Assembly: GCA_947632595.1 (NCBI GenBank)
Contig: CANRPY010000001.1
Location: 2,457-66,456, forward strand
DNA length: 64,000 nt
From: an uncultured Bacilli bacterium
GTDB lineage: Bacteria; Bacillota_I; Bacilli_A; RF39; UBA660
Direction of reading: 5' to 3'
Part shown: in pieces, positions 8,123 through 43,955 of the stretch
Layout: each line of letters begins with the position of its first letter
Position numbering within the stretch: the stretch's first letter is position 1
Notes under the pieces: generated by a model
What the model was told of the DNA's origin: nothing
The model's database searches: none
Seen by the model: only the letters and a program-made list of their open reading frames with translations
Translations under genes and position numbers: made by a program

Positions 8123-8129
8123 AGTATTT

Positions 8130-11094: not shown

Positions 11095-11123
11095 ATTATA
11101 TTAATAACATAAACTTTTGTCAA
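11095..11123 (-). promoter_or_regulatory. Sigma-A-type promoter of the NMNAT-pnuC operon
   Basis: Minus strand: TTGACA (11123-11118), 17-nt spacer, TATAAT (11100-11095). Confidence 0.6.
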
Positions 11124-11169
11124 TATGTTTTTAACAAAAAAATAATATCAATTGATTTTGATATTATTT

Positions 11170-13254: not shown

Positions 13255-13306
13255 AAGATTTGTTTAGGTTTATTCTATCATAGGTTTTCCAAAAAATAGC
13301 AAAAAA

Positions 13307-13324
13307 ATAGTCTTTCGACTATTT
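13307..13324 (-). terminator. Intrinsic terminator after the lipoprotein gene
   Basis: Minus strand: AATAGTC-gaaa-GACTATT followed by TTTTTTTGC. Confidence 0.6.
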
Positions 13325-13325
13325 C

Positions 13326-13865: not shown

Positions 13866-13918
13866 AAATTACTTCCTTCCGATTTCCATTATATCATATT
13901 TTTCTTGTTTGTTACGCT

Positions 13919-24821: not shown

Positions 24822-25824
24822 TTATGCAACAATTAATTTTTGACCAACGGATAGAAGGTTGTTTTCAAGTCCATTTAGTCTTTTTAATTCTTCTACTGTT
24901 AGATTAAATTTTTTAGAAACAGACCATAAGGTGTCACCTGGTTCTACTATGTAGATGTTTGATGACTCTTCTGGTGGAATATTCTTTTTCGGTACTAATA
25001 GTTTTTGACCGATCTGTAGAGTTAGATTGGTTAAGTTATTTAGTTCAATTAAATCTGGAACGGTTATATTGTATTTTTGGGAGATTAGCCACAAGCTATC
25101 TCCTTTTTGTACGACGTATACATCATAGTCGGATGGAGATGGTTCTGGGGTTGTTGGAGGAGAAATGGTTTCCCCTACTCCTGGAATATAGAGTTGTTGT
25201 CCTATGGATAAGGTGTTTGTTGTTAGAGAATTTGCTTCTATAATATCTTCAATCGATGTATTAAACTTTCTAGAAATAGAGTATAGGGTATCACCTTTTT
25301 CTACTGTATAGTAAGTTCCAGGTATTGGCCCTGGAAGAGGAGTTTCTTCCTCTTCTTTATCCTTTAGATATAAGACTTGTCCTATTGTTAAGGTGTCTGT
25401 TTCTAAGTTATTGATTCGTTTTAAGTCTGGTATTGAGATTTGAAATCTCTTGCTTATAGAATATAGAGTATCTCCTTTTTGTACGATGTAGGTTTCTTGA
25501 GATGTTTGTTCTGTATTGGCAGAGTATGGATATCCTAGGTATTCGCAGATGGCTTCTACTACTCCTTCTGCGTATAGCAAGGCATCCCTTTTTAGTTTTG
25601 CCGCGTCTTTTGCATTATCAATAAATCCATATTCTACAAGGACTGGTTCTGTTACATCGGTCTCTCTTAGGATGTAGTAGTAATCTTTATTAGGGTTTTC
25701 TGGTAATCTTCGTTGGTATACTTTTCTTTTTATTTGCCCTTTAGAACCGATTTTATCTAGTATTAGGTTAGCGAAGGTAGAGTCATTCTTAAGAGAGAAT
25801 ACGACTTCGGCGCCTGCGCCACCT
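24822..25824 (-). pseudogene. C-terminal fragment of a split N-acetylmuramoyl-L-alanine amidase (Amidase_3) with four LysM repeats
   Basis: My translation of 25824-25581 reads GGAGAEVVFSLKNDSTFANLILDKIG...DYYYILRETDVTEPVLVEYGFIDNAKDA, the C-terminal half of Amidase_3. It runs in frame into the tracked ORF 24822-25580, which has four repeats of the YxVxKGDTLxxIS LysM motif. Confidence 0.85.
25820..25824. repeat. Left copy of the 5-bp CACCT junction core (att)
   Basis: Host ...gcgcctgcgcCACCTgaaattgaccc... element. The same pentamer occurs at 35283-35287. Confidence 0.65.
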
Positions 25825-25834
25825 GAAATTGACC

Positions 25835-26044
25835 CTAGTGGTTATTATTATCAATTAGTTTTTTTATTGCTTCTTCATATTGATATTTATTTATAATTGT
25901 ACTTTTATTATACTCATGTTTTAATTCTGTAACCAATTTCATTAAATCTTTTGTAAAGTCATCGAAATTATTGTTTTCATCTATGACTTTATTTACTAAT
26001 TCTTTCCAATTATTATCAATTTTTATAGCTTGTTCTACTGTCAT
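25835..26044 (-). CDS. Small helical hypothetical protein (possible recombination directionality factor)
   Basis: 69-aa ORF immediately downstream of the recombinase gene, at the element end. No motif recognised; the function is inferred from position only. Confidence 0.3.
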   Translation of the reverse strand: MTVEQAIKIDNNWKELVNKVIDENNNFDDFTKDLMKLVTELKHEYNKSTIINKYQYEEAIKKLIDNNNH

Positions 26045-26063
26045 ATTTTTTCTCCTTTCTTTT

Positions 26064-27722
26064 TCATTTTATTTTACCATACCTTCCGTAAGGATTTCTT
26101 ACTAAATTCTTATCAGTGTATTTAAAGGTATAGTCATCAAGAATTTGATATTTGAACTTAATTGTTATATTTCGATTTTCATCTGCTTCTATTCTATCTA
26201 TTATGGTAAATAACAAGTCTCTATTTGGTTTTTCTAAATTTAATAATTCTTTTATCTTCTTTGTATAATTTGGTATCTTATTAGCATTATTTTTCCTTTT
26301 CATAATTTCTAATTCTACTTCTTCTAGTTTATCTTTAAGTTTTTTCATTTTTTGCTCATAAGGAGATACTATCATTTTATAAGAGTCTAAAGAAATGTTA
26401 CCATCAATTCGATCTTGATAAACTGTTTGAATATTAGAAGATAATTTTAAAATGTCTTTTTCAATATCTTTTTTTATTTCATCTAGTGATTTAGTACCAG
26501 AATTGGTTCTATTTATAATTTCGTTATTTAATTCTTTAATACTTAATCCTTTAAATAAATCGGATAATAATTTATTTAATTCTTCTAATACTTCTTCTTC
26601 AAAATATTCATAAGGGAAAAAATGCGTTTTGCATCTTCCTCTAATGGGATCTCTAGCATATCTATTACAATTAATAGTCCAGTAGTTATGATTCTTTCTA
26701 TAAATTACTCCTAACCGATTCCCACATTCTTTACAGAAGATTAATCCCTCTAGCAATCTTGTTGGTCTTTTTGTTTTTTTTTCAACTTTTCGATTATGAT
26801 TATCTCTTTTTTTATTAATAATCCTAAATGTCTCTTTATCTACTAATGGTTCATGAGTATTTTCTACTATTACCCATAAACTTTGGTCAAGAGTTATTTT
26901 CTTTTTAGATTTATAACTAATATTGGTCTGAGTATGTTGTACCATATCACCAGTATACATTCTGTTACTCAATATTTTTTTTACTGAATGTATTGTCCAC
27001 TCATTTTTTTCTTTTACTCTAGAAGATATTGGTAAATTCTTATAAGCACTTGGTGTTGGTGCACCTAATTTAGTAAGTCGAGTAGCTATTTCTGATATTC
27101 CTATATCATTTGCTCTCCATTCAAACATTTGCTTAACATAGTGAGCTGTATTAGGATCTATTATTAAATGCCCTTTATCTTCTGGGTCTCTCATATAACC
27201 ATAACACGGTTTGCTCCCAATAAATTTACCATCTTTTCTTTTAGAATCTAATACATTCCTTATTTTTAATGAATTTTGTTTACTATAATAATCATTACAA
27301 GCAATAATAAATGTTGACGAATCATTACTTGCTTGATTTTTCATACTATCATAGTTTTCAACAATAGATATAAATCTTACTTTGTTTTCTGGAAAATATG
27401 TTTCAATATAGTAACCCGTCATTACATGATCTCTACCTAGCCTTGATAAATCTTTTACTACTACAAGATTAATCTTTTTATTTTTTATATCTTCCATCAT
27501 TCTTATAAATCCAGGTCTATCAAAATTTGTTCCTGAATAGCCATCATCTACATACTCATCTATTAAATTAAATCCATTTTTTAAACAATAGTCTCTTAAT
27601 ATTTCTTTTTGATTAGTAACACTTTCGCTATCTGACTCATATTTTTTATCTTTATCTTCTTGAGAAAGTCTAATATAAATACCAGCATTATAATTCATAT
27701 TTGTTAAGTAACTATAATTCAT
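26064..27722 (-). CDS. Large serine recombinase (resolvase N-terminal + recombinase + zinc-ribbon domains)
   Basis: GIYIRLSQEDKD (catalytic Ser), VVVKDLSRLGRD, recombinase-domain body, CKECGNRL...CNRY zinc ribbon, C-terminal coiled coil. Confidence 0.9.
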   Translation of the reverse strand: MNYSYLTNMNYNAGIYIRLSQEDKDKKYESDSESVTNQKEILRDYCLKNGFNLIDEYVDDGYSGTNFDRPGFIRMMEDIKNKKINLVVVKDLSRLGRDHVMTGYYIETYFPENKVRFISIVENYDSMKNQASNDSSTFIIACNDYYSKQNSLKIRNVLDSKRKDGKFIGSKPCYGYMRDPEDKGHLIIDPNTAHYVKQMFEWRANDIGISEIATRLTKLGAPTPSAYKNLPISSRVKEKNEWTIHSVKKILSNRMYTGDMVQHTQTNISYKSKKKITLDQSLWVIVENTHEPLVDKETFRIINKKRDNHNRKVEKKTKRPTRLLEGLIFCKECGNRLGVIYRKNHNYWTINCNRYARDPIRGRCKTHFFPYEYFEEEVLEELNKLLSDLFKGLSIKELNNEIINRTNSGTKSLDEIKKDIEKDILKLSSNIQTVYQDRIDGNISLDSYKMIVSPYEQKMKKLKDKLEEVELEIMKRKNNANKIPNYTKKIKELLNLEKPNRDLLFTIIDRIEADENRNITIKFKYQILDDYTFKYTDKNLVRNPYGRYGKIK

Positions 27723-27795
27723 TTTCTACCTCCTCATTCTATAGCACTTAACTTTCTTCGAGACAAGTGCATCTTACCATGATAAATAAAAATAA

Positions 27796-27831
27796 GCAAA
27801 TCACTAGAACTGTTTTTCTTCTAGAATTTGC
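27796..27831 (-). terminator. Intrinsic terminator downstream of the SSB-like gene
   Basis: Minus strand: GCAAATTCTAGAAG-loop-TTCTAGTGATTTGC followed by TTATTTTTATTT. Confidence 0.55.
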
Positions 27832-27915
27832 TTTAATAAATAATTTAATATTAATTCTTTAAAAATTTCTTTTTTATCTTCTTCCATACTTAAATCTATG
27901 TCCACAATAAAAGGT

Positions 27916-28365
27916 TTATTCACTAGAATCACCATCCTTAAATTGACCAAGTAATTCTTCTAGTTCAGCAAGTTCTTCTTCAGTTGGTGGAATAGATTCG
28001 CATCTTTTACCATTCCAAGTTTCAACTCCATCATAATCAATTCCAATAATAGGACCATTTGCACTAATGAAATCATATTCTTCTATCTTTGTAACAGTAA
28101 CATAATTATGTATCTTTTTATTTTTATCTTGATATGAATTTAAATATCCTTTCAAATAAACATTTTTACCCAATAAAAAAAGACCTTTATTATTCTCATA
28201 AAGATCCTTATAAACTTTTAAACTAGCATATACTAAATTATCTTTTTCTTTTGGTGAATACTTTTTACAAGTAAGTCCCAAAATAATGTATTTATTGTTA
28301 ATTAAAATATTGTTTATATTTCCTGATAATAACACCTCATTATATGTCATAAACAAAACCTCCAT
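27916..28365 (-). CDS. OB-fold single-stranded DNA-binding-like protein
   Basis: NEVLLSGNI...LKVYKDLYENN...GKNVYLKGYLNSYQDKNKK follows the SSB OB-fold pattern. The C-terminus is acidic but lacks the canonical DDDxPF tip. Confidence 0.4.
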   Translation of the reverse strand: MEVLFMTYNEVLLSGNINNILINNKYIILGLTCKKYSPKEKDNLVYASLKVYKDLYENNKGLFLLGKNVYLKGYLNSYQDKNKKIHNYVTVTKIEEYDFISANGPIIGIDYDGVETWNGKRCESIPPTEEELAELEELLGQFKDGDSSE

Positions 28366-28461
28366 TGAATTATATATATAATTTTTTATTTATTATTTTT
28401 CTTTTAATTAATATATTATACATGCACAATAATTCATTTATTTTATGCATATCGTTGCATA

Positions 28462-28797
28462 CTAACTTGAATCATCTTGCACATCTATATCTTGATTTAT
28501 ATATATCCTTCGTTGAATTAAATCGTTATTTCTAACTCTTTTTATATCAATATATCCTCTTTCTTTTAATCTATTTAAAGAGTAATTAATTGTTCTTACT
28601 TTAACAAAAGATAAATTTGATAATACTTTATTAGTTGCAAAACAATAACCATTTAATCTACTAAGATTATAAATATTGCCAAATAAAAAGCAGTCTGATT
28701 TAGTCAAACTGCTATCTTTCATTAGTTCTCTAGGAATAAGTATAAAATCTTTTTTCAAATACAATTTTCTCCTTTCTAAATGTCCCAAAAATATCAT
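28462..28797 (-). CDS. Winged-helix DNA-binding protein (replication-organiser/regulator-like)
   Basis: ATNKVLSNLSFVKVRTINYSLNRLKERGYIDIKR is a wHTH pattern. The gene has a palindrome-rich upstream region. Confidence 0.5.
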   Translation of the reverse strand: MIFLGHLERRKLYLKKDFILIPRELMKDSSLTKSDCFLFGNIYNLSRLNGYCFATNKVLSNLSFVKVRTINYSLNRLKERGYIDIKRVRNNDLIQRRIYINQDIDVQDDSS

Positions 28798-28831
28798 TTT
28801 TTAATTGATATTTTTGTATCAGGATAAGACG

Positions 28832-28909
28832 ATGGTACCACAACATATATTTCACCTATGTAAAATCTATGTTTCTAATGGTACCAAACCTATTTTGCAC
28901 TTGCAAAAT
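28832..28909. promoter_or_regulatory. Cluster of palindromic operator-like sites upstream of the wHTH gene
   Basis: ATGGTACCA occurs at 28832-28840 and 28878-28886 (TGGTACCA is a palindrome). A perfect inverted repeat ATTTTGCA-ct-TGCAAAAT lies at 28892-28909. Confidence 0.4.
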
Positions 28910-29203
28910 TTATCCCAAATAAGTGATTGAATCTTAATTAATCCTTTATATATAAGCAAAATAAAAATCCCAATATTTATAATATTGAGATTTCAATGGG
29001 ATATAAAGCATTCTTTTTATATACCTCATTATATATAATTTTCACCTATTATAGAAACTTTAACATAAAAAATTGTAATTGTCCATTCGATTTAAAAGTG
29101 ATTTTAAATGTTATTTATACTTCGCAAAACATATATTTTATCCTTTATTTTCAAGGATTTTTTTAAATTAAATTTATGTATATTTTAAAAAAATAATTAA
29201 AAA

Positions 29204-29599
29204 TTATTTATATTTTAAGTTTTTAATATCTATATTCCATAATCCTAATTTACCATTTATCTCTTTATCATAATCAATCTTTTTCACATTTTTTAATTTC
29301 CAAGCATAACCACTTCTATATTTTGCACCATATGCTATATTATTTTCATTCATTATTTTACTATTTAATTTTTCATTAAATTCTAGGCAATCTTCTATTT
29401 CGGCTTCAGCAATAATTCTTTTTGATGGATAATCTAAATTTAAAAATTTAAATTTTTCCATTTCTTTTTTATCGACACCGGCTCCAGCATGGATTAATAC
29501 TTTACCTCTATAATTAGTTTTCCAAGACCTAAATTCATATTTTTTTATTCCTTCTGCAACTAGGGTAGCCCATGGTTGTTTTAATGTTAATATTTTCAT
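29204..29599 (-). CDS. ASCH-domain protein
   Basis: MKILTLKQPWATLVAEGIKKYEFRSW...GKVLIHAG is a typical ASCH (PUA-like) N-terminus. Confidence 0.7.
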   Translation of the reverse strand: MKILTLKQPWATLVAEGIKKYEFRSWKTNYRGKVLIHAGAGVDKKEMEKFKFLNLDYPSKRIIAEAEIEDCLEFNEKLNSKIMNENNIAYGAKYRSGYAWKLKNVKKIDYDKEINGKLGLWNIDIKNLKYK

Positions 29600-29689
29600 A
29601 AATAATCACCATTATTATTTTATCACAATCATTCTCATAATTCTTATGAATTTATACTCAGTATGTTATAATGTATATGGAGGGATAAT

Positions 29690-30685
29690 ATGGTATTAGA
29701 TAAAGTAATGTTTGATAAACTGCACTCATTTTCAGAAAATATTTGCCATGACTTTAATATAAAAGAACCTACAGATAGAGATTCACTTATTAAATATCTT
29801 AGTACTTTGCAGAAAGGCATCGATATTGGGGAAATTAATTCTTCATTTATAGGATTGATGTTATATGATTTTGTATCATCTAAAGAAACACGTGATAGAC
29901 ATACAACTGCGAGAATTTTTGAAGATATTTTTGGAGAATTAGTAGGGGCAAAAGCTACCGATACTTCATCTAGAGTTAATCCTATTGCTCCAAATTATAT
30001 TAAAGTATATGATAATTTATGTAGTAATGTTGATTGGTCAGTTAGTCATGATTTAGCAGGTAATAAACGAGAAAAGGCAGATCATAGAATAGACCAATAT
30101 GAATTATCTATTAAAACATTAAAAGGAAAGCTTTATAATAAAGAAGGTAGAATTGTTAATAATGATTTTAATGATGAAATTAATATAGGTTCTCTATCAC
30201 ACAGAGCATTATTTATTGGATTAACAGATAAAGCTCTTAGCGATAGAAAAGGAGGATTAGGATCTCCAAGACAAACAATTCCACTACTCAAATCCATAAA
30301 AGAAAATAATAAATTTGATGAATTTAAAAGCAGAATAAATGACTATGTAAAATACGTATATAGCGATGATTTATTAATTGTATATAAATCAGGGTATAAA
30401 ATGAAAATAACTTTAATTCCATCAGAATCTTTTGTAACCGCTATTACGGAATCTTTAAATGATGAAAATGGTGGCATAAATTCATTTACAAAAATATGGT
30501 ATAGATGGGAAAATAATAATTTAAGAATAAGATATACAGCATTAATGGACATGATTAAAAAACTAAACTTAAAATATTTTGATACAATTTTTAACTTAGA
30601 AAAAGTATTTGAAAACAAAGAATTTATAGATAATATAATTATTCTAGAAAAATTAATAGATCAAAAAATAGAAGATTTAATTTAA
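29690..30685 (+). CDS. Candidate type II restriction endonuclease (partner of the adjacent C5-MTase)
   Basis: Convergent with, and overlapping by 9 nt, the 3' end of the C5-methyltransferase gene. Possible nuclease core KADHRIDQYELSIKT. No family recognised. Confidence 0.45.
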   Translation: MVLDKVMFDKLHSFSENICHDFNIKEPTDRDSLIKYLSTLQKGIDIGEINSSFIGLMLYDFVSSKETRDRHTTARIFEDIFGELVGAKATDTSSRVNPIAPNYIKVYDNLCSNVDWSVSHDLAGNKREKADHRIDQYELSIKTLKGKLYNKEGRIVNNDFNDEINIGSLSHRALFIGLTDKALSDRKGGLGSPRQTIPLLKSIKENNKFDEFKSRINDYVKYVYSDDLLIVYKSGYKMKITLIPSESFVTAITESLNDENGGINSFTKIWYRWENNNLRIRYTALMDMIKKLNLKYFDTIFNLEKVFENKEFIDNIIILEKLIDQKIEDLI

Positions 30686-31810
30686 AAAATCTTCTATTTT
30701 TATTGGAAAAATTTTGGCAATGTTATATGCCATTAAAACTGGAACAGCATTTCCTATTTGTCTATAACAAGCAGACGTGCTTCCTAAAAATAAAAATGTA
30801 TCAGGAAAAGATTGTATTCTAGCAACTTCTCGAACGCTCATTCTTCTATTATATTCAGGATGAGGAATAATTAATGGGCCTCCTGTACCACTACCTCTTC
30901 CCATTATCGTTGGAGAATATTTATCCCAATATGTTGGTCTATTTCCAACCATATGTGCTTTTTTTTGATTCAATTTACATTTAGATGATGTGTGATTCAG
31001 TACTTCACTATTATCAATATTTGTTTCTTCGGGTAGTCCAAAAATTGTATCTCTTAATGTTTGATACTGATATTTTATATTTTGATCAAAATAATCATTA
31101 ATATTTATTTTTTTATTATTACACAATTTATTAAACATATCTGTAACGACTAAGTATGTATTTTTAGGTTGCTTAATATTACTATTCTTTGAATGAGTCT
31201 CTTTTACTAATAACCTCTTTTTTTTCTTTTTTGAATCAGCAGGTTTGTCTGTAATGGGCATTTTAATTTTTGATGCATAATCATTCCTTACTCCAAAAAT
31301 TATGACCCTTTCACGATTTTGTGGAACACCATAATTTAATGCATTTAAAACATTATAATATACTGTATATCCATCACCAATTGATTCAATATCTTTAATA
31401 ATCATTTCTAAAATTTTTCCCTTTTCCATATTTTCTAAGCCTTTAACATTTTCTAATAATATAAATTTAGGATTTTTTATTTTGATCATTTTTAAAACTT
31501 GCAAATACAAATAATTTCTTTCATCTTCCATACTTCTGTTAATATTGGCTATAGAAAAACCTTGACAAGGAAATCCTCCAATAACTATATCTGCATCAGG
31601 TATTTCTTTTTTTAATTTTTCTTCATCTTGATTTAAGTATTCTAATATATCACCTCTAACAACTTTATGCTTATTAAATCTATTAAAGTTTTCTTCATAT
31701 GTATCCACTGCATAGTCATCAAAATCATTTGCCCATACTATTTTATGACCAGCTAAAGAAAAGCCTAAGTCTAATCCACCAGCTCCTGAGAACATTGATA
31801 TAACCTTCAT
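30677..31810 (-). CDS. DNA (cytosine-5)-methyltransferase
   Basis: Motif I FSGAGGLDLGF, motif IV GGFPCQGFS, motif VI LLENVKGL, motif VIII QNRERV, motif X RQIGNAVPV. Confidence 0.92.
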   Translation of the reverse strand: MKVISMFSGAGGLDLGFSLAGHKIVWANDFDDYAVDTYEENFNRFNKHKVVRGDILEYLNQDEEKLKKEIPDADIVIGGFPCQGFSIANINRSMEDERNYLYLQVLKMIKIKNPKFILLENVKGLENMEKGKILEMIIKDIESIGDGYTVYYNVLNALNYGVPQNRERVIIFGVRNDYASKIKMPITDKPADSKKKKKRLLVKETHSKNSNIKQPKNTYLVVTDMFNKLCNNKKININDYFDQNIKYQYQTLRDTIFGLPEETNIDNSEVLNHTSSKCKLNQKKAHMVGNRPTYWDKYSPTIMGRGSGTGGPLIIPHPEYNRRMSVREVARIQSFPDTFLFLGSTSACYRQIGNAVPVLMAYNIAKIFPIKIEDFLN

Positions 31811-31842
31811 TTTTTTATCACTCCTAACTGACTTTTATTTAG

Positions 31843-34065
31843 TTATTTTAAATCTATTTCTTCTTCAGCCTTATTGTATAATTCAATTTTATTTTCAACA
31901 TCAACTTTTGTAACGAGCCATTTTCTTAAAGAACAAAGTCTTATAAAATCATCAATTCTATTTATTCCATTTATTTCTTTTAATGTAATTACAATTCCAA
32001 ATTTTATTCCCTCTCCATCTCTTTTTTCCAATCGCTCTTTAGTTTTAATACTTATGCCCCATAATTCATTTGAATACCTTTTTTTAGGCTTAGAACCATC
32101 TTTTAATATTTCAATTATGTGTTTTACATTATCCCACTTTCTATAATTTTTTCGTGCATTACCTTCATACATATAGTGACCTTTTTCAGTTTGATAGTTA
32201 TTATTTATTGTTTTTATATGACCCTTGTCATCAATTCTGCCAAATGATAAATCTAGTTCTGTATTAGTGTAATCTACACCTTGATTTCTTGAACAATTGG
32301 GAAAATAACATAATGTGGCCCTTGAAATAAATGGATATTTATTATTATGTAATGGAACTGGAATATCATATGTATATGTATCATATTTTTCTGAAATTCC
32401 TTCAATAACAAATTTTATTTCATCATCTTTAGAATTTATGATATCCTCTATTCTTTTTGGAACAACACCATATCCTAATAATGGAGCCTCTTCTTGATTA
32501 ATTATTTCTTTCCAATTTGTTGCAGAATCAATTATTAGGGCTTTAGCTACTTCTCTACTTAATCCTAAAATGTCAATTAAATAAGACATTTTTCTAGAAA
32601 TCCATGGAGCTGCAAATGATGTCCCAGCTAATAAACATTCCCCACAAGAATTACAAGCTTTAATATAATCATTTTTATCTCCACCATAGTAACATATATC
32701 TGGCTTATTAAAAAAGGATAATACTAAGCCCTTCCTAGAGTATGATGCTGGAGTACCCTTTGAGTTAACAGAATTAACAACCAATGCATTTATTGAATCA
32801 GCAGGTGCACCAATCATTTCTACATTTTCTTTTTGTTTATTAGTTCCAGCAATTACAAATATAACATTATTTTCATATTGAATTTTATCCAATATGGCTG
32901 CCTCAGGTGATATAAAATTAGGATTAATCTCAAGAGCTGAACCAAGCGATAAATTCCAAACTTTAATATCTCTATTAGTTTTTACTATCTCCTTAATGTG
33001 TCTTAATATAGCAAATGAACTCATTTGCTTAGAAAGGGCAACACCAAAATGTCTAACTTTAAATCTGCCACATCCATCATCCAGTTCTGGATTTATATTT
33101 GGGCCATCTACTATAATAGATGATACCGCTGTGCCATGATCCATATCTTCTGAAGATGTTTCTATATCATCAGAAATCACTTTATGATATTCAACCCAAT
33201 TTGAAAAATAACTTCTGGTATCAAATAATGTATCAATTACTCCAATTGTTGGTTCATTGCTAGGATTTGGTAATTTAGGAATAGTGTCATTATCTAAAGT
33301 AACAAAATCATCTTTTGACAATTCTGAAATATCACTTAAAGTCATTGCAATTAAATATGGTGCTTTCATTTTTAATAAATCTAATTGATCTGGCGTTAGT
33401 AATACCGTTGAATCTTCTTCAATAATTCTCTGAGACAAAATATCTATACCTAATTTATTCATTATTTCTTTTATATTATCATCAGTTTTATACAAAGTAA
33501 CTAATGCATTATCACTTATAATATCGCTATTGTCGGGTAAATCAAACTTTTCTACATAATACGCATCTACAATTATTTGATTAAAGGCTGACTTAGAAAG
33601 ACCTACTTTTTTTAAATAATTAGATAAATCATCTAGATTGTCTAACTTTTGTTGAGAAACTACACCAGACATTTTTTCTTTGACACATTTAATAACTAAA
33701 TCTAATTTATTAATAGAAGTATTTAATGAAGATAGATGTAGATAATGTGTAATGATATGCTTTGGAGCTTCTTTATTAGTAAATTTTGCACCAACTATTG
33801 TGTTGTTTGTTGTTTTACCAGGCTCACGAATAATTGCAGATATCCTATTACTTTTTGCTATTATATCAATGTAATACACACTAATTAATGCACCATTAAC
33901 TACATTTTGCGTATTCCAAAAACTATATAATTTCTTTAATTGAAATAATAAAGTCTCTAAATGTTCAACCAAAACTATTGAACTACCAGGAAGTACAGCA
34001 GGTCCTGGAGTTGAATTATTTGTTCTCTGATGAAATTGTCCTTTTAATTGAAGTAAGCTATTCAT
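31843..34065 (-). CDS. ietS: S8 (subtilase) serine peptidase with unknown N-terminal domain of about 270 aa; IetS-like
   Basis: Catalytic triad contexts IGVIDTLFD (Asp), DHGTAVSSII (His), GTSFAAPWIS (Ser). It lies 3 nt downstream of the AAA+ ATPase gene. Confidence 0.7.
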   Translation of the reverse strand: MNSLLQLKGQFHQRTNNSTPGPAVLPGSSIVLVEHLETLLFQLKKLYSFWNTQNVVNGALISVYYIDIIAKSNRISAIIREPGKTTNNTIVGAKFTNKEAPKHIITHYLHLSSLNTSINKLDLVIKCVKEKMSGVVSQQKLDNLDDLSNYLKKVGLSKSAFNQIIVDAYYVEKFDLPDNSDIISDNALVTLYKTDDNIKEIMNKLGIDILSQRIIEEDSTVLLTPDQLDLLKMKAPYLIAMTLSDISELSKDDFVTLDNDTIPKLPNPSNEPTIGVIDTLFDTRSYFSNWVEYHKVISDDIETSSEDMDHGTAVSSIIVDGPNINPELDDGCGRFKVRHFGVALSKQMSSFAILRHIKEIVKTNRDIKVWNLSLGSALEINPNFISPEAAILDKIQYENNVIFVIAGTNKQKENVEMIGAPADSINALVVNSVNSKGTPASYSRKGLVLSFFNKPDICYYGGDKNDYIKACNSCGECLLAGTSFAAPWISRKMSYLIDILGLSREVAKALIIDSATNWKEIINQEEAPLLGYGVVPKRIEDIINSKDDEIKFVIEGISEKYDTYTYDIPVPLHNNKYPFISRATLCYFPNCSRNQGVDYTNTELDLSFGRIDDKGHIKTINNNYQTEKGHYMYEGNARKNYRKWDNVKHIIEILKDGSKPKKRYSNELWGISIKTKERLEKRDGEGIKFGIVITLKEINGINRIDDFIRLCSLRKWLVTKVDVENKIELYNKAEEEIDLK

Positions 34066-34068
34066 ATT

Positions 34069-35199
34069 CTAATCTCTCCATTCTCTAGAAACCTGACTTT
34101 TAGAAATTCCCGTAATTATTTCAATTTCTCTAACTGTAAATCCTAGTTTTTGTAAATCCTTTAATTGTAATTTTCTATCTTTGTTTATTTTCTTATACAA
34201 TGTTTTTAAATAGTCTAATTCACGGTCAGGATCACTAAAAGCAATAGATGTCTTTATTAAATTTCTTAAATCTCCAGGATATGGAATTGGATTCATTAAA
34301 TTAATTATCTTTTTAAATAATTTTATATTTCTTCCAGCCTTTTTAAATTTTAAAAGCATTTCATTTAAAATATACTCAGCAACCTCCAACAAATCATCTC
34401 TTGAATAATTATTAAAATTAATTATAGAATCAAATCTTCTTATTAGCGCCTTATCAAATGAAGAAAATAAATTAGTAGTTGCAATAAATAAAATATTGTT
34501 ATTTAATTGATCTAATTCTTTCAGAATTGTAGAAGTTGCTCTTCCCATTTCCCTTATATCATTATCATTCATTCTATCTAATGCTATGGCATCTATCTCA
34601 TCAAAAAGTATTATTACTTTTTCTGGATGAGGCATTTTTTTAATTTCATAAAACAATTCCGTAATGTTTTTAGCGGTTTGACCAAGTTTACTATCAATAA
34701 CTATACTGAAATCCACAGAAAAAATATCTCTTTCTAAGATCCTTGATAATTGCCTAACCGTTTCAGTTTTACCTGTTCCAGGAGCTCCTTCAAATAAAAA
34801 TTTATTGACACCAACATTATGTTTAACAGCATGTATTAATCCAACAATATCATCTTTTATGCTTTCTGGTAAAGGAAATGGTTCTTTACTTGGAGATATT
34901 TTTTTAAAAAAAACCAAATCCGATTTATCAATTTGTGGTACAAAAGTATTTACATCAGAAAGAAGAGCAAGTATATATTCTGATAATTCAACATCACCAG
35001 TTTTATCAAAATATTTTGCAATTTCATATGCCTCATTTCTAAAATATTCATCATTATTTTCTGTATGATATTTAATTAAATTTAATATATTCTTCTTCTT
35101 CATATTATCACCTATATACATTATATATCTTCTGGGACATTTTTGCAATATTTGGGACATATTTTTATCGTTTGTTTTTTGTAATTTCTGTAAAATCAT
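34069..35199 (-). CDS. ietA: AAA+ ATPase with C-terminal HTH; IetA-like
   Basis: Walker A FEGAPGTGKTE, Walker B VIILFDEIDAI, arginine-finger region ALIRRFD, C-terminal LGFTVREIEIITGISKSQVSREW. The true start is probably MKKKNILNL at about 35103. Confidence 0.7.
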   Translation of the reverse strand: MILQKLQKTNDKNMSQILQKCPRRYIMYIGDNMKKKNILNLIKYHTENNDEYFRNEAYEIAKYFDKTGDVELSEYILALLSDVNTFVPQIDKSDLVFFKKISPSKEPFPLPESIKDDIVGLIHAVKHNVGVNKFLFEGAPGTGKTETVRQLSRILERDIFSVDFSIVIDSKLGQTAKNITELFYEIKKMPHPEKVIILFDEIDAIALDRMNDNDIREMGRATSTILKELDQLNNNILFIATTNLFSSFDKALIRRFDSIINFNNYSRDDLLEVAEYILNEMLLKFKKAGRNIKLFKKIINLMNPIPYPGDLRNLIKTSIAFSDPDRELDYLKTLYKKINKDRKLQLKDLQKLGFTVREIEIITGISKSQVSREWRD

Positions 35200-35282
35200 A
35201 AAAAAGATAACTTATTTTTAATAAATTATCTTTAAAATCAAAATTTTCTCGAAGAAAGTTATTTTACTACAAGAGCCTTTTT

Positions 35283-35287
35283 CACCT
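35283..35287. repeat. Right copy of the 5-bp CACCT junction core (att)
   Basis: Element ...agagccttttTCACCTcctgcattta... host. Confidence 0.65.
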
Positions 35288-35559
35288 CCTGCATTTATGT
35301 GATTAGATACTAGTAATGTGTTTTGATATCCTCTTTTTAACTCTTTTATTCGATCAATTCTTTTATCTTTTGGTAAGTATTCATCTTGATCTCTTGTAAT
35401 TACTACGGGTACTCCTAATTCTTTTAATCGATTATACATATATGTCGATATCTCTAGTGTTAAATCTTTCTCTTCTAATCCATTCCCTACTGCACCGCTA
35501 TCGATACCCCCGTGACCGGCATCAATTATTACCAATTCATTCTTCATAAATAAAATCAC
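35283..35559 (-). pseudogene. N-terminal fragment of the split Amidase_3 cell-wall amidase
   Basis: LVIIDAGHGGIDSGAVGNGLEEKDLTL...LLVSNHINAGG is the Amidase_3 N-terminal half. The tracked ORF (35218-35559) then reads through into element DNA (EKGSCSKITFF...). Confidence 0.85.
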
Positions 35560-35727
35560 CTAAAATAATTTATGCTTATTTCAGGTGATTGCTAACGAAA
35601 GAAGGTATTAATATTTATATTCTTAAGTCTTCATTGCTTAATACTTTTTATTTCGTAATCTATTTTTAAAAAAACTATTAATGTTAAATCCATACTGATT
35701 AAATATTTTTGAAAAAATTATGTAATA

Positions 35728-36855
35728 TTATTTATTATCTTTTTTATCTTTAGGTTTAAAATTAATTATTTTAGTTTTTCCACTATCATTAGGTTTTTTA
35801 TCTTCATCAACATTAATTATTGAATATAAGTCTGCTGGTTTTGAAGAGAACAATTGATTCATCATAATTTTTCTTACATTCAAGTAAACTATTCTTTCTT
35901 TTAAATTATTCTCTATTTCATACTGAATCATATCTTCTATTACTTCTTCATCAAAATCGAAACTAAATTCTTCTTCGGATGAATATGGATTGTCATAATG
36001 TTCCACTTTATCTTTTACACCTAGTTCTTTGGCTACAAAGTATAATAATTCGGTTTCAGACATACTACTTTCCGATATACTCATATATTCATGGATCATA
36101 TTAAGCATACTATTATATCTCTTTGCTTCATCAGCCATTTTATATTTGTTCCAGTTTGATTGGATATTTCTTATTTCATTTCTAATATTACTAATTAAAT
36201 CAAGATGGGTACTTATATATGAACTTAGCATTGAATCATAATATCCAATAAAATTAATTATATAATTGTTTATTCCTTTTTCCTCTATTTTTAGAGGTGA
36301 TTTAAATTGATTATGGAGCATTGTTTCAAAATTAATGTCATTATCTTTTATAATCTCATCAATCATTTTTTTGGCATAATATTTTAATATAATATCACTA
36401 CCATTATAAGAATCAAAGATGAGTAAAAATCCCTTTCCTATCTTTGCTTCTAAATTAGGATCTTCTGCTTTTGCAATTTCTATGGCTACTCTTTTTGCAC
36501 AATACGCGGTTTCACTTGATACTTTATATTTATTAGATAAATCATTAGGTAACAATTCAGACATCAAAATATTTAATTCTATTCTTTCTATTTCTGAATC
36601 CACGTTGTTCAAATAATAATCTGCTACTTTTTTTATGAATTCAGCATCATACCAAAATTTTAATACTAAAAACTTAACAAAATTATAATCTTTCTTTAAT
36701 CGTTCAGAACACGAAAAATAAATGTTTGGATTATTAGTATTATTTATAACTTCCATTATAAAATCTTTATCATTCTCTAATTGTTCTCTAGAATAGTTTC
36801 CTAACTCTTCACCATTAATGTATTTTCTAACTAAAGAAATATCTATTTTTATCAT
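35728..36855 (-). CDS. Hypothetical protein with DUF4116-like repeat at the N-terminus
   Basis: LENDKDFIMEVINN..NIYFSCSERLKKDYNFVKFLV resembles the DUF4116 repeat pattern (recalled). ATGA overlap with the sigma-like gene. Confidence 0.35.
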   Translation of the reverse strand: MIKIDISLVRKYINGEELGNYSREQLENDKDFIMEVINNTNNPNIYFSCSERLKKDYNFVKFLVLKFWYDAEFIKKVADYYLNNVDSEIERIELNILMSELLPNDLSNKYKVSSETAYCAKRVAIEIAKAEDPNLEAKIGKGFLLIFDSYNGSDIILKYYAKKMIDEIIKDNDINFETMLHNQFKSPLKIEEKGINNYIINFIGYYDSMLSSYISTHLDLISNIRNEIRNIQSNWNKYKMADEAKRYNSMLNMIHEYMSISESSMSETELLYFVAKELGVKDKVEHYDNPYSSEEEFSFDFDEEVIEDMIQYEIENNLKERIVYLNVRKIMMNQLFSSKPADLYSIINVDEDKKPNDSGKTKIINFKPKDKKDNK

Positions 36856-37784
36856 TAAAATTCCTCCTTATATTTCTGAATATTCCTACTTCTTCTAAGT
36901 TTTCTTAATGCCTTGTTTTCTACTTGTCTAAGTCCTGTTCTTGTAATCCCATGTATATGACAAACATCATCTATATGCATTGGATCGTTGTTATCTAATC
37001 CAAATCTTTCATGTATTATTTTCTTCATTCTTTCATTTGTAAGTACTTGATCTACTTCTTCAATAAATTTTTCTAACATAATCTCTCTTATTATATTGTC
37101 TTCTATATTTGAATTATCTGAAGTTTCAGTTGGAAAAGTTTCTACTAATCCTAGATTAATTATTAGTCTTATGTAGTTACTTATTTTCGTTTTTCCTAAT
37201 CGTATATCTTCTTTATCTGTTCTTATGTTGTTGTATGCTGCTTCCAATAAGGGAATTAAATGGATAGCATAATCATATGTAAAAAATGACCATTTGTTGG
37301 TATCATAATATTTTTCTTTGATAACATTTTGAAAATTTATATTTGGCGCGCTATTTTTAAGTTCTACATACAATATGAAAAGTTCCACAAAAAGGTCTGC
37401 AGAAATACCAAACTGTTCATTTACTACTATTTCATCACCACATAAAATATTGCAAACAGTATTAAGAAATGTTGAGGTAAATATGAGTGAATATTTATTT
37501 ACTTTTAATAAATCACCACTATATATTTTTTTGATCCAAACTTCATTAAATGCACTAATTATGTCATTCATATCATAAGAGGTGGAGGTAAGTAGCTCTA
37601 AGTTACTTCTTTTTATATATTCATAGACAACATAAAGTGTTCCTAATACAAGTCTATCCATATATAATTTTTTTTGTTTTTCATCAGGGGTATTTATTGC
37701 TTTTCTATATAGTTCTTGAGCATCTACTATTTTTAATCTTTCAAATGAAGATATTTGATCATACCATTGTTTTAATTCTTCCAT
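36855..37784 (-). CDS. Divergent sigma-70-family factor
   Basis: Region 4.2 HTH MHIDDVCHIHGITRTGLRQVENKALRKLRRS. A weak region-2-like segment YMDRLVLGTLYVVYEYIKR...DIISAFNEVWIKKI. Confidence 0.55.
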   Translation of the reverse strand: MEELKQWYDQISSFERLKIVDAQELYRKAINTPDEKQKKLYMDRLVLGTLYVVYEYIKRSNLELLTSTSYDMNDIISAFNEVWIKKIYSGDLLKVNKYSLIFTSTFLNTVCNILCGDEIVVNEQFGISADLFVELFILYVELKNSAPNINFQNVIKEKYYDTNKWSFFTYDYAIHLIPLLEAAYNNIRTDKEDIRLGKTKISNYIRLIINLGLVETFPTETSDNSNIEDNIIREIMLEKFIEEVDQVLTNERMKKIIHERFGLDNNDPMHIDDVCHIHGITRTGLRQVENKALRKLRRSRNIQKYKEEF

Positions 37785-37887
37785 ATTAATCCATGTTTAT
37801 AGTTCATCTTTATTAAAAATATTACTCATGTCTTCTAATGAACTTTTTACCTTTAATAAATTTTCTTTCATTACAAATTACCCCTTT

Positions 37888-38496
37888 TTATTTGTTTAAA
37901 ATCTTTCTTTTAATAGTTCTTTTGCTATTCAATGAACAAAAATAATTTCCGTCTTCTGTATCTAAATCAAATGTAAAATCTTCGTTCATTTGCTTGGATA
38001 TGTTTTCTAATACCTTAATCTTTCTTTCTGAATCTTCATCTGTTAATTTCCCAAACATTCCAATACTAATATTATTTTCTCCTCTATTGTGAATCAAATT
38101 CCAGTTTAAAATATCACTTTCAAAATAAGGATTATATGTCATTAAAATATGTTCCATAGGAATTATAATTCCATTTTGATGTAGAATTAAAGGAATCTCC
38201 CTATCAATATATAACGTAGAATTTCTTTTTCCCATTGTTTCTGCAAAAGGGGATATTACACGAATCCCTTGCTGTGATAATGAATCATATTGTCCCTTAC
38301 CAATTTCCAAAATATCATCCACCGAATTATCAAATCCTAAAAACTTTAGATAGGATTCATAGATATTTAATAAAGATTTCTGTCTCATAATCCAATCGGC
38401 GAAATCGTTAGAATATATCTTGTTAATATTCGTTATCTCTATACCATTTGCTTCACAAAACTGTTTAAATAAACACCATATATATTTTTTAAACAT
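37888..38496 (-). CDS. Hypothetical protein
   Basis: 202-aa ORF, first gene of the apparent three-gene unit. No motif recognised. Confidence 0.35.
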   Translation of the reverse strand: MFKKYIWCLFKQFCEANGIEITNINKIYSNDFADWIMRQKSLLNIYESYLKFLGFDNSVDDILEIGKGQYDSLSQQGIRVISPFAETMGKRNSTLYIDREIPLILHQNGIIIPMEHILMTYNPYFESDILNWNLIHNRGENNISIGMFGKLTDEDSERKIKVLENISKQMNEDFTFDLDTEDGNYFCSLNSKRTIKRKILNK

Positions 38497-38610
38497 ATCT
38501 TTCTCCTGCCCTTTCTTCCAAAAGCACTAGTATTATACTTCAAAAGATGGTATAATTAAATTACTAATTTTTCATATTAGATATAACTACTGGTTATATG
38601 AGGTGTTATT

Positions 38611-39504
38611 ATGAATATCAATTTAGAATTATATAAAACTTTTTATTATGTTGCAAAAAATGAAAATATTTCTAGGGCTTCAAACGAATTGTTAATTAGT
38701 CAGCCTGCTATCAGTAAAGCAATTAAATCTTTAGAGGAACAACTTGGTACAAAACTATTTATAAGAAAAAGAGATGGTATGGAATTAACAGAAGTAGGAG
38801 AAGTATTTTACAAAAAAATAAAGGATGCTATGGAAATCATCTTATCTGCTGAAAATGATTTAGAGGTTTTAACAAGTATGGAATCTGGTATAATTAATAT
38901 AGGTGCTAGTAAAACAATTCTTCATGAATTTCTAATGCCATATATTATAGATTTTCATAAAAAATATCCTAAAATTAATATTAGGATATTTTCTGATAAA
39001 ATAACTGATTTAATTACAAAGTCAAAAATGGGAATCATAGATGTTATATTTACAAATATGCCAATCAATTTGCCAAGTAATTTTGATTCAGCAAAAATAA
39101 TGACATTACATGATTGTCTTGTCGCTAATAATTCATATCTCTATTTAAAAGATAAAAAAATGGATAAAAAAGACATATCAAAATTACCTCTTTTAATTTT
39201 GGCAAAAGGGGCAACTACAAGAATTAGACTCGATGATTATTGTATTGAAAATAATATTGAGATTCATCCACAAATGGAATTCGGAAGTAATACTTTGATA
39301 AAGGAGTTTACTGAGGCTGGTTTTGGAATTGGATTGTTAACGGAAGAACATATAAAAGAAGAATTAGATAGTGGAGAACTTTTTAAACTGGATCTTGAAT
39401 TACCATTAAAAGAAAAGTATTTGGGAATGATTTGGAATACAGATAATAAAAGTCTTGTTACAAAGAATTTTATTCAATATATAAAAGATAACATTAATCA
39501 ATAA
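38611..39504 (+). CDS. LysR-family transcriptional regulator
   Basis: N-terminal HTH NISRASNELLISQPAISKAIKSLEEQLGTKLFIR plus a substrate-binding domain length of about 200 aa. Confidence 0.88.
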   Translation: MNINLELYKTFYYVAKNENISRASNELLISQPAISKAIKSLEEQLGTKLFIRKRDGMELTEVGEVFYKKIKDAMEIILSAENDLEVLTSMESGIINIGASKTILHEFLMPYIIDFHKKYPKINIRIFSDKITDLITKSKMGIIDVIFTNMPINLPSNFDSAKIMTLHDCLVANNSYLYLKDKKMDKKDISKLPLLILAKGATTRIRLDDYCIENNIEIHPQMEFGSNTLIKEFTEAGFGIGLLTEEHIKEELDSGELFKLDLELPLKEKYLGMIWNTDNKSLVTKNFIQYIKDNINQ

Positions 39505-39506
39505 TG

Positions 39507-41198
39507 TTATCTTCTTTTTGATGGACCTTGTGCAAATATTTCTTTCAAGCCAAAATTTAATTCTTTGTTTAATAATTCTTCTAATTCTTTATATGCTCCA
39601 CTTGATGCTTGATAGCCGCCATTTAAAGTAGATGAAATAGCTAAATTGCATAGTTCTTTTTCAATTGGTGAAAAAATTCTTTTGCCTTTTTCATTTTCAA
39701 TACTTTTAACTATTGATCCTTCATTCCCTTGTAATGCCTTCCTAAATCTATTTAATGTTTCTATTCTTTCTCCATTATTTGTAACTATGCTCTCCGATTT
39801 TCCAGTGTATATGGAATTGGGCACATATATTCCTTTATCATTTTTATAATAATTTTCAACAAACGTTCTAAATATGAAGTCTTTCTTTTGCTTTCTTATA
39901 TTGATTAAATCTCTTAGTATCATTCTTACATCAAAACTGCTGTCTACCACATTATCATTGTATCTAGTTGGGAATATAGATACATATTTTTCGTTTTCAG
40001 AATTAATTCCATGATCTAATTGAACTAAACAAAAACAGGTTTTAAAAAAATCTCCTCTTATTAATGAGCTTGTTTTTAATATTATTTTTTCCCAAGGAAA
40101 TAATTGATATAGTTTTCCATTTTCTTCCACTAATCCACCATCTGCTATTATTCTTTCTTTATTATCTAATATTGCTTTTAATATAGCAAATGCAGAAGAG
40201 TTTTCATTAATTGGATAATATACTGAACCATCTGCTCTTACTCTTGAAAAGTATCTTTTTGTAGTTTCAGATAATATTTCTCCTTTTTGTATTCCTAGTA
40301 AATGTGGCAAATTATTTCTATTAATTTCGTAATAAAAGTCAAATTCAGAATCATCTTCTAATACCACTTTATTCATAACCGAATTACTTTTTTCTATTGG
40401 GGCATTCGGATTTTTTGTATAGAAAAATTTGTAAGTATCCACACATAATTCTAGATTATCGAATAAGTTTTTCATGACCTGCTTCATAATCTCATACGTA
40501 GATTGTGACCAAAGTATATCTTCTGCTCCAGGATAAGAAGATAAAATAATATTGTGACTTTCATCAGTAGTGGTTTTGGTCATTCCTTTTCCATCATCTC
40601 TAACATAGGTTATTGTTGGAATTCTCCTGCCACTTGTGTAAGTATCAAGTCCCTTTGCCTCTGTAACTTCGGCCAAATAATATGTTCCATCCTTTTTTTG
40701 TCTTAAAATTTGTCTTTTATCTTTTGGTGACCATCTTTCGAATTCCTCCTCTAATTGAATATTTGAAGCTTTTGAAGCTTCAATTAAATGTATTAAGGAT
40801 GCTTCATCAAATGTAAATCTTTTATTTAATTCATTTGCAATTTTATCTAAGTCTGAATCAATTATTTCCTGAAGCCCATTATCAAATCCCATTTTTTCTG
40901 CGATATTTAAGAATAATGATTTTATTTCATCTTGTTTTTTTGTTGCTATAGCGGCTTCTATTGGCATATTAAAATGAATTTCAGATAGTCGATCAATAAT
41001 TAGTCGGCTTAATTTCTTATATATGTTTTCAATGGCGTCTATTACTTCTGTTTCTTCTTCATCAAGAATTCTATAAGATTCAAGTTCTGATATTAAATAA
41101 CTAGAATTTTTTTTAATTATTTGCGTTAAAAAATCTATATTCATTACTTCCTGTCCAAAAATGGCTTTTAAAACCTCTAAATTCATCTCTGTTTTCAT
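39507..41198 (-). CDS. Large hypothetical protein (563 aa)
   Basis: Long ORF with normal codon texture. The segment NLPHLLGIQKGE...FAILKAILDNKERII...FPWEKIILKT faintly recalls phage/polyvalent-protein nuclease-like (PBECR-type) modules; not verifiable here. Confidence 0.4.
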   Translation of the reverse strand: MKTEMNLEVLKAIFGQEVMNIDFLTQIIKKNSSYLISELESYRILDEEETEVIDAIENIYKKLSRLIIDRLSEIHFNMPIEAAIATKKQDEIKSLFLNIAEKMGFDNGLQEIIDSDLDKIANELNKRFTFDEASLIHLIEASKASNIQLEEEFERWSPKDKRQILRQKKDGTYYLAEVTEAKGLDTYTSGRRIPTITYVRDDGKGMTKTTTDESHNIILSSYPGAEDILWSQSTYEIMKQVMKNLFDNLELCVDTYKFFYTKNPNAPIEKSNSVMNKVVLEDDSEFDFYYEINRNNLPHLLGIQKGEILSETTKRYFSRVRADGSVYYPINENSSAFAILKAILDNKERIIADGGLVEENGKLYQLFPWEKIILKTSSLIRGDFFKTCFCLVQLDHGINSENEKYVSIFPTRYNDNVVDSSFDVRMILRDLINIRKQKKDFIFRTFVENYYKNDKGIYVPNSIYTGKSESIVTNNGERIETLNRFRKALQGNEGSIVKSIENEKGKRIFSPIEKELCNLAISSTLNGGYQASSGAYKELEELLNKELNFGLKEIFAQGPSKRR

Positions 41199-41366
41199 AA
41201 TATCACATCCTTGGTACTTACTATCTATATATCATTATATCATATAATTATTAATCTTTTTCGATACTTATTTCCTTATTTAATTTGTACTAAGATATTG
41301 ACACTTATTAAAATCATTACACTTTCTATTTCTTTCCTCAAAAAACACACCTTTTGGTGTGTTCTC

Positions 41367-42752: not shown

Positions 42753-42775
42753 AACATATCACCTCTAATCATCCC

Positions 42776-43900: not shown

Positions 43901-43955
43901 CTTTTTCCTCCAAAATAGTTCTGAAAACTATATTAAGGTTTTATATAGTCTTCGT

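Follow-up and report, generated by a model that had tools for sequence, protein, structure and literature searches.

In the window, by which we mean the full 64,000-nt stretch analyzed here (contig CANRPY010000001.1 of an uncultured Bacilli bacterium), a gene encoding an amidase with an Amidase_3 domain and four LysM repeats is divided by an inserted element that carries its own large serine recombinase (LSR). The initial annotation of this DNA had described an amidase gene split by an element of approximately 9.5 kb, and this was confirmed, as 9,458 bp lie between the two copies of a short shared core. The N-terminal half, which had been placed at 35559–35283, does end with LLVSNHINAGG, but its start is the ATG at 35547, and 35559 is an upstream GTG. 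The C-terminal half with GAGAEVVFSL and four LysM repeats was present as described. The N-part retains its own Shine–Dalgarno (SD) sequence, and beyond the N-side junction the truncated frame extends for 24 codons inside the element and terminates at 35218; at the C-side junction, the C-half lacks a start codon.

When the flanks were joined in silico with one copy of AGGTG (minus strand; CACCT on the plus strand, found at both junctions), an open reading frame (ORF) of 420 aa was obtained. The Pfam Amidase_3 domain ran across the junction of this ORF (residues 6–180, profile positions 1–173 of 174, E 7e-32), four LysM domains were detected (Pfam, E 2e-64), and the rebuilt SNHINAGGGAGAEV aligned without gaps with SNHINAGGGEGAEV of 15 uninterrupted homologs, a check that the initial annotation had proposed. 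Removal of the element thus gives an uninterrupted ORF and host attachment site (attB), as expected of a conservative insertion. The earlier statement that excision restores the ORF exactly was borne out with respect to the frame and the Amidase_3 profile, but the restored protein has alanine at residue 90 (codon GCA, 25816–25814, minus strand), two codons past the crossover, where 99 of 102 related sequences have glutamate or aspartate (E 76, D 23, A 3; the three are the window, L126, and L129, labels of this form denoting the loci and contigs used for comparison). The pentamer alone occurs 58 times in the window; the split is far beyond chance because, in 22 of 26 independent metagenome contigs, the element-end motif is followed by an amidase C-half that begins at exactly this codon.

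Features of the split amidase gene and of the inserted element (positions in the window)
Feature	Position	Strand	Remarks
Amidase C-terminal part (GGAGAEVVFSL..., remaining Amidase_3, four LysM repeats)	24822..25824	-	
C-side core copy AGGTG	25820..25824	-	GG at 25823-25822
Inserted element between core copies	25825..35282	-	9,458 bp; GC 25.8% vs ~30% in flanks
C-side element end TAACCACTAGGGTCAATTTC	25825..25850	-	other predicted attP arm
69-aa ORF between recombinase and C-side junction	25835..26044	-	variable cargo; no family match
Large serine recombinase (LSR), 552 aa	26064..27722	-	Pfam Resolvase 3-144 of 145, Recombinase 1-100 of 102, Zn_ribbon_recom 1-58 of 58
Recombinase leader	27744..27799	-	promoter-like TTGCTT-17-TAAGAT (27799-27771), then 7-bp hairpin (27770-27744)
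27-aa micro-ORF MEEDKKEIFKELILNYLLKQILEEKQF, just upstream of recombinase	27804..27887	-	also present in minimal elements and in the 74%-identity clade
144-aa protein, seen only in this element family	27916..28350	-	98 clusters, all at least 61% identical; no Pfam domain
HTH_36 protein, like N-terminal DNA-binding part of DnaD-like replication initiators	28462..28797	-	Pfam HTH_36; PHROG DnaD-like and replication-initiation families
ASCH-domain protein (cargo)	29204..29599	-	Pfam ASCH E 4e-9; phrog_3193 E 5e-32
331-aa ORF, convergent with methyltransferase, 9-nt overlap	29690..30685	+	candidate endonuclease, on positional grounds only
C-5 cytosine DNA methyltransferase (type II, m5C)	30677..31810	-	Pfam DNA_methylase E 8e-84; PADLOC MTase_II E 9e-94
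IetS, subtilase (S8)	31843..34065	-	PADLOC IetS E 5e-66, near-whole profile; Pfam Peptidase_S8
IetA, AAA+ ATPase of IetAS	34069..35199	-	PADLOC IetA E 9e-35; Pfam AAA E 2e-26
N-side element end AAAAAGGCTCTTGTAGTAAAATAACTTTCTTCGAG...	35240..35282	-	one predicted attP arm; conserved in L059, L069, L098
N-side core copy AGGTG	35283..35287	-	predicted crossover GG at 35286-35285
Amidase N-terminal part, codons 1-88 (MKNEL...SNHINAGG)	35283..35547	-	start ATG at 35547

The amidase has no signal peptide. Its downstream neighbours are conserved in about 40 loci, and an ortholog approximately 70% identical lies intact in that conserved setting; the conserved neighbours indicate that the amidase is a core gene and not a prophage lysin. 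A 15-bp hairpin (AATCACCT...AGGTGATT; window 35554–35590, minus strand) would sequester the amidase SD sequence. Similar anti-SD/SD pairing was observed in L003 and L008 and not in L004, L005, L016, L025, or L059. The hairpin could be a terminator of the upstream gene or a translational control element.

The initial annotation had taken the pentamer CACCT as the core. The pentamer is indeed present twice, but three observations show that the crossover is the GG dinucleotide inside it and not the whole pentamer. The predicted attachment site of the element (attP), ...CAATTTCAGGTGAAAAAGG... (junction form ...AACCACTAGGGTCAATTTCAGGTGAAAAAGGCTCTTGTAG...), is an imperfect inverted repeat centred on the GG of AGGTG (complementary at 14 of 23 positions in the window and at 15 of 23 in L059, the next-best centre giving 9 of 23). 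The two junctions of a secondary insertion beside the rny gene have only GG in common, and a clade of LSRs 74% identical to that of the window exchanges at the GG of the same Gly codon. A central dinucleotide is the expected crossover for this enzyme class (PMC3783163). The ends of the insert accordingly have the form of attL and attR, with a short shared core and an inverted-repeat attP around a non-palindromic dinucleotide. The predicted attB, ...AATGCAGGAGGTGGCGCAGG... (junction form ...CACATAAATGCAGGAGGTGGCGCAGGCGCC...), encodes NAGG/G(E/D)GAE in the amidase, with exchange at the GG of the second Gly codon. When the secondary attB at the rny site, CCTTCTGGA-GG-AGGAGATAG, was compared with that in the amidase, AATGCAGGA-GG-TGGCGCAGG, GGA-GG-xGG was common to both. 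The C-side end motif, TAACCACTAGRGYC-N6-AGGTG, is conserved in L059, L069, L079, and the 22 metagenome contigs; together with the N-side motif, AGGTG-N8-CTYKTRGTAAAWTARCTTTCTTCGAG, it is shared by elements with an approximately 93%-identical recombinase in other genomes.

The window's recombinase belongs to a family of more than 90 clusters at 83–93% identity, with a further tier at 71–77%, and the members sampled from either tier interrupt the amidase at one and the same position. The same GG position is used by LSRs that are 74%, 88%, and approximately 48–50% identical to the window's. A scan of a metagenome collection with the end motif returned the 26 contigs mentioned above, in 22 of which GG(E/D)GAEV follows immediately, at the same codon, so that the search for the same recombinase/att pairing in other genomes, also suggested earlier, gave a positive answer. 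The LSRs on the end-motif contigs are 88–94% identical to the window's, while the host amidases are just 47–75% identical. The matches L091, L092, L100, and L102, with neither recombinase nor amidase, were set aside as unrelated. Compared with plasmid and phage records, the LSR gave no match above 34% identity, and a phage or plasmid origin was rejected for this reason.

In 80 loci from species-representative genomes, which are metagenome-assembled genomes (MAGs) of uncultured gut and rumen Bacilli (labelled Bacilli, Tenericutes, Erysipelotrichaceae, or Onthousia), foreign DNA was found at the window's insertion position in six, and two more contigs begin exactly there. About one in five related species has an interrupted copy of the amidase. 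A strain of the same species as the window (flank 97.7% identical) has a different element at the same site, with a recombinase 48% identical, which indicates turnover; its cargo consists of type I restriction–modification, PDC-S11, PDC-S01, and DUF4238. The cargo of other copies is type I, II, or IIG restriction–modification, AbiE, PDC-S01/S11, or an AMP-binding enzyme with a hybrid histidine kinase. The last, non-defence combination was seen in L059 (3389–7238) and L069 (230–4156), where an approximately 93%-identical recombinase is accompanied by an AMP-binding (adenylate-forming) enzyme and then a hybrid histidine kinase/response regulator.

In the 74% clade (L110–L113) the element is reversed, the recombinase adjoining the N-side junction in antisense, with the same GG crossover; L110, for example, has the recombinase at 9001–10656 and the amidase N-fragment at 11045–11353. 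This implies that, with respect to the recombinase gene, the attP of this clade has its central dinucleotide flipped.

The amidase gene has a second insertion site, at DAG/HGG (codon 11–12; called site 1 below, the GG position of the window being site 2). Here, in approximately 10 of the 80 species, an LSR about 30% identical lies directly upstream and the first 11 amidase codons are replaced (L010, L014, L022, L026, L031, L034, L035, L037, L040, and L049; the junction of L035 is at ~9960–10001). The element end at this site, ...TTTGGAYTTT...CCTG/CAC, is conserved. In the Onthousia-type loci it provides a TTG start that is in frame, together with 16 new N-terminal residues (MNFNIIFNIWDFLLPS-HGG...); since the TTG overlaps the recombinase stop, gene callers report a full-length ‘LysM protein’ (P0084). 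With two LSR clades at two sites, the amidase gene is a landing pad for two recombinase clades.

Further copies of the window's element were found by exact-protein look-ups of its IetS and recombinase. Three copies (L120, L126, and L129) are 99.9–100% identical to it and lie in the window's own context. Six others, from four samples (L118, L119, L122, L124, L127, and L128), are 99.93% identical, with 7 mismatches in 9,458 bp, and are located in an intergenic, non-amidase position: in L118 the copy (6606–16073) lies downstream of rny, which encodes RNase Y, between it and a cluster of genes for 110-aa, 200-aa, Fic, MazG-like, and SLFN-type helicase proteins, and the element ends at the rny site are the same as in the window. 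The copies in L121, L123, and L125 (99.87% identical) interrupt the amidase of another host, the catalytic part of which shares 44 of 98 residues with the window's. At their start (positions 1–40), the L121-type contigs have the end of a site-1 element, which matches the one in L010 exactly; after a further 230 nt, the IetAS element is inserted at site 2 (270–9740); the amidase of this host is thus broken at both sites by two different elements.

Serine-recombinase elements move only by excision and subsequent integration of the circle. The near-identical copies in three contexts imply that the element excises and, as judged by sequence identity, show that it has moved very recently; excision presumably yields a circle. 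The suggestion that the insert is a precise LSR insertion and not a scrambled or dead one was likewise upheld: the recombinase, with all three domains of full length, both ends, and the attP inverted repeat are intact, and near-identical copies exist elsewhere.

The conserved backbone of the element consists of the two attP arms, the DnaD-like helix-turn-helix (HTH) protein, the 144-aa protein, the micro-ORF, the structured leader, and the LSR, and the corresponding part of the window (29069–26042) shows 86–90% DNA identity in many contigs. The LSR has the domains expected of its class, and Ser20 in its RLS motif aligns with the TnpX serine. The TnpX catalytic domain (2mhc, E 3e-27) is also its closest solved structure, and DUF4368 was not found in the LSR by Pfam. 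The recombinase had been described as lying at the left end of the element; it is intact, but the 69-aa ORF separates it from the junction. This ORF was seen only in L088, L108, and copies of the window's element, and was rejected as a directionality factor since it is missing from most family members.

The micro-ORF is the sole universally conserved small partner of the recombinase, and its variable sites, most of them at third positions, are distributed over codon positions 1, 2, and 3 as 9, 2, and 14; it may be a regulator or a directionality factor. In the leader, compensatory changes in four of seven pairs give weak support to the hairpin, just seven sequences having been compared. Either the micro-ORF or the leader may control the recombinase. 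The HTH_36 gene is the first of the backbone, and its homologs adjoin the recombinase in both insertion-site families. The AlphaFold2 model of the 144-aa protein (pLDDT 54) has the order b1-b2-b3-a-b4-b5 with an acidic tail, and when it was compared with the PDB by Foldseek, the top 50 matches were all SSB or PriB. This low-confidence model tentatively suggests a fold of the oligonucleotide/oligosaccharide-binding (OB) type, as in single-stranded DNA-binding protein (SSB).

Defence cargo had been proposed for this element, and it was found in the form of IetA and IetS and of an m5C methyltransferase with a convergent candidate endonuclease. IetA and IetS are adjacent, 3 nt apart, as expected for an IetAS system. 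The 331-aa ORF gave no family match in four libraries, including Pfam, PADLOC, and PHROGs; it is inherited together with the methyltransferase in every copy of the window's element. Going by the family annotation, IetAS would protect against phage, as the cargo as a whole may do. Nearly all genes of the element share the orientation of the amidase. IetA begins 19 nt past the stop of the truncated amidase frame in the same orientation, suggesting that the cargo may be read from the amidase promoter.

We consider it likely, with a probability of roughly 0.8, that the insert is a selfish and active integrative islet, moved in site-specific fashion by its own TnpX-like LSR and with a preferred attB in the Amidase_3–LysM gene. 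The LSR would join attP to the amidase attB at the GG, within the gene of a leaderless Amidase_3–LysM autolysin, a core gene in a clade of gut and rumen Bacilli that are uncultured and have small genomes. The insertion cuts this gene in two and inactivates it. Since LSR chemistry is conservative, excision would rejoin the gene scar-free. The backbone would remain constant and the cargo slots would vary, the present copy carrying IetAS, a putative type II restriction–modification system, and ASCH.

Several results weigh against an active islet. There was no attP (circle) junction among the 26 metagenome end-motif matches, and the viral collection gave 0 matches. The comparison with intact-amidase strains, proposed in the initial annotation, found no partner of the same species: no intact same-species allele was detected, none above 72% identity was present among 5.8 billion protein clusters, and no occupied/empty pair above 88% DNA identity was present among 109 loci. 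The site is occupied in all contigs sampled from this species, which would fit a locked-in element too. None of the element ORFs matched a relaxase/Mob family in Pfam or PHROGs, no oriT was recognised, and no homolog of a directionality factor of known type was found in the element. Finally, the lineage-specific change of Glu/Asp to Ala could impair the restored enzyme or the attR half-site; lying beside the junction, it could be either early decay of the split gene or a change of that half-site.

Two further observations were considered and rejected as evidence. L062 and L063, which start at the junction, were not accepted as a sign of mixed occupied and empty populations, since the shared-repeat backbone breaks assemblies anyway. 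Ratios of nonsynonymous to synonymous polymorphism (pN/pS) of 0.15–0.6 between occupied alleles were not accepted as selection on the split halves: the elements of L059 and L069 are more alike (94%) than the host genes (85%), so the insertions are independent or recent, and the value for L069/L106 arose from a frame artefact. Of the split C-halves that could be evaluated, nearly all still form open reading frames, as expected if the insertions are recent. The C-half of L096 (~3286 downward) stops after 257 codons, and those of L086 and L093, which are identical over the 601 nt compared, reach 311; this shortening could reflect LysM-repeat variation or a frameshift.

The alternative that fares best is a switch similar to skin or to active lysogeny, in which host-timed excision (in the sporulation mother cell, in stationary phase, or under phage or DNA-damage stress) restores the autolysin in a subpopulation, the interruption otherwise holding a dangerous lysin off. 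We regard it as unlikely. The exact reconstruction of the amidase would suit such a switch, as would the lack of a signal peptide, which is a property of the mother-cell lysin CwlC and of phage endolysins as well. The conserved micro-ORF and structured leader before the recombinase hint at controlled expression, and the split C-halves are nearly all open, but open half-frames are equally explained by recent insertion. The element, however, is mobile between hosts and more alike between them than the host genes are. It does not have the single dedicated target of a sporulation gene-intervening element, since the same element is also found in the non-amidase site beside rny (L118), and the amidase of L121 is broken by two unrelated elements, so that two coordinated excisions would be needed. 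The window's lineage, moreover, carries E90A. The interrupted copies in about one in five related species and the failure to find a directionality factor of known type also speak against a switch.

Some families of the host clade are predicted to form spores (PMC10868615), and developmental excision is known for gene-intervening elements that are not phages, such as gin in gerE (PMC5595907), both of which would favour the switch. Against this, the clade also includes families predicted not to form spores (PMC10868615), and no convincing sporulation gene was found in the scanned parts of the window. The sole sporulation-flavoured match in these parts was a SpoIID/LytB-domain protein at 49592–50650, which scored 73 bits, the cutoff of the SpoIID equivalog being 235. 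We found no positive evidence for the developmentally or stress-timed excision that the initial annotation had put forward.

Rather improbable is also an immobilised remnant, that is, a fixed defence islet that has lost excision and left the amidase as a pseudogene. Such a remnant would account for the occupied site in all sampled contigs of the species, the failure to find an intact allele above 72% identity in the protein clusters, the unique Glu-to-Ala change next to the junction in the attR half-site, and the C-half without a start codon. It is at odds with the intact recombinase, ends, and backbone, with the 99.9%-identical copies in two other contexts, and with the turnover indicated by the different element at this site in the same-species strain.

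We likewise give little credence to a coupled scheme in which a leaderless autolysin gene serves as landing site for a functional reason: excision controlled by the micro-ORF and leader restores the lysin in a subpopulation, and lysis, for example of the mother cell in sporulating members or altruistic under phage attack, frees the circular element, which has no relaxase, for uptake by neighbouring cells. This would explain why the backbone includes SSB-like and DnaD-like proteins. If it were true, excision, host lysis, and horizontal spread of the defence cargo would be one coupled programme.

It is extremely unlikely that the split is a chimeric join made by the metagenome assembler: the family is a shared repeat within samples and contigs often break there (L062 and L063 at the junction, L120 and L129 inside the element), but the same junctions, always at the same dinucleotide, were found in dozens of independent assemblies from different projects and assemblers, with both halves on single contigs in the window, L059, L098, and L114–L117.

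Other parts of the window contained further island-like segments. Positions 35728–44000, upstream of the amidase, have a GC content of 25–28%, are not syntenic with orthologous loci, and may be another island; they encode a DUF4116 protein, a LysR regulator, DUF5305, an S24/S26-like peptidase, and a 309-aa protein with a C-terminal sigma-70 region 4, the best match of which, below threshold, was MzaA of the MZA anti-phage system. Positions 1240–5973 and 17798–19192 were also flagged. They comprise consecutive genes for a ParB-like protein, an SNF2-family helicase, a 338-aa product, and a Dam methyltransferase, an arrangement resembling mobile elements or defence loci, and, separately, a lone VirD4-like coupling protein (CD1115 family) that is conserved at the same place in L001, L126, and L129.

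The element and its relatives provide a natural set of recombinases, attP, and attB sites. Many variants of it exist, the crossover dinucleotide is mapped, one secondary site occurs naturally, and in one clade the polarity is reversed. Such sets are raw material for integrase engineering, and the source clade of uncultured gut Bacilli has no genetic tools. The cargo slots are a place to seek new defence genes, several cargo genes being without family assignment. An Amidase_3–LysM gene that seems truncated or missing in MAGs of this clade will often just be occupied by an element. The present evidence does not extend developmental gene reconstitution past the known cases.

In limited literature searches we found no published description of the element family or its target; thus, the family apparently has not been described before, and its mechanism appears ordinary. 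Site-specific serine-recombinase elements typically integrate inside dispensable genes (PMC5704250). The window's element resembles such Firmicutes elements (for example, the streptococcal ones in rumA; PMC5704250) in having a single LSR, very short direct repeats, a disrupted coding sequence, small size, and adaptive cargo. It differs from them in that no relaxase or mobilisation module was found, in its Amidase_3–LysM target and its RFN20/RF39-like uncultured Bacilli host, and in a backbone that includes the DnaD-like HTH protein, the SSB-like protein, and the micro-ORF.

The likeness to Tn4451/Tn4453 of Clostridium lies in the catalytic domain, for which TnpX is the closest among solved structures, in the 2-bp crossover, and in the lack of an obvious directionality factor. 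TnpX-type enzymes perform both excision and insertion, and the Tn4451-family recombinase does so without a directionality factor (PMC5704250); the window's recombinase may likewise need none. Unlike these transposons, the window's element has neither DUF4368 nor a TnpZ/RS_A mobilisation module, carries defence genes and not chloramphenicol resistance, and shows a much stricter target choice (one gene received all 22 of the recognisable family insertions, and a single secondary site is known). Since the mobilisation module is lacking, the element is not a member of the Tn4451 family.

As in skin (sigK), SPbeta (spsM), and gin (gerE), an LSR element splits a coding sequence that precise excision would restore (PMC4191935, PMC5499854, PMC5025042, PMC5595907), and gin shows that gene-intervening elements need not be prophages (PMC5595907). 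In those systems, excision is timed developmentally by a mother-cell directionality factor and the target is a sporulation gene, whereas the window's element, which resembles them only in splitting a gene, moves horizontally and takes up diverse cargo.

It is common for distantly related LSRs to converge on a single conserved gene, for example a Mg-chelatase/ATP-dependent protease gene, and DUF4368 marks multi-targeting recombinases (Durrant et al. 2022, PMC10083194). The Amidase_3–LysM target is not mentioned in the main text of that paper. The present family follows the same pattern, with LSR clusters down to approximately 48% identity on one attB and a site-specific architecture without DUF4368. 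It departs from it in that two clades use different sites within one gene and in that one clade is integrated in reverse at the shared dinucleotide. As on other integrated mobile elements and in defence hotspots (PMC10201445, PMC10121019), variable IetAS, restriction–modification, AbiE, and PDC candidates occupy one position across strains and species. Unlike those hotspots, this position is defined by a serine-recombinase attB inside a gene and not by a tRNA gene or an intergenic region, and some of the copies that use it carry non-defence cargo.

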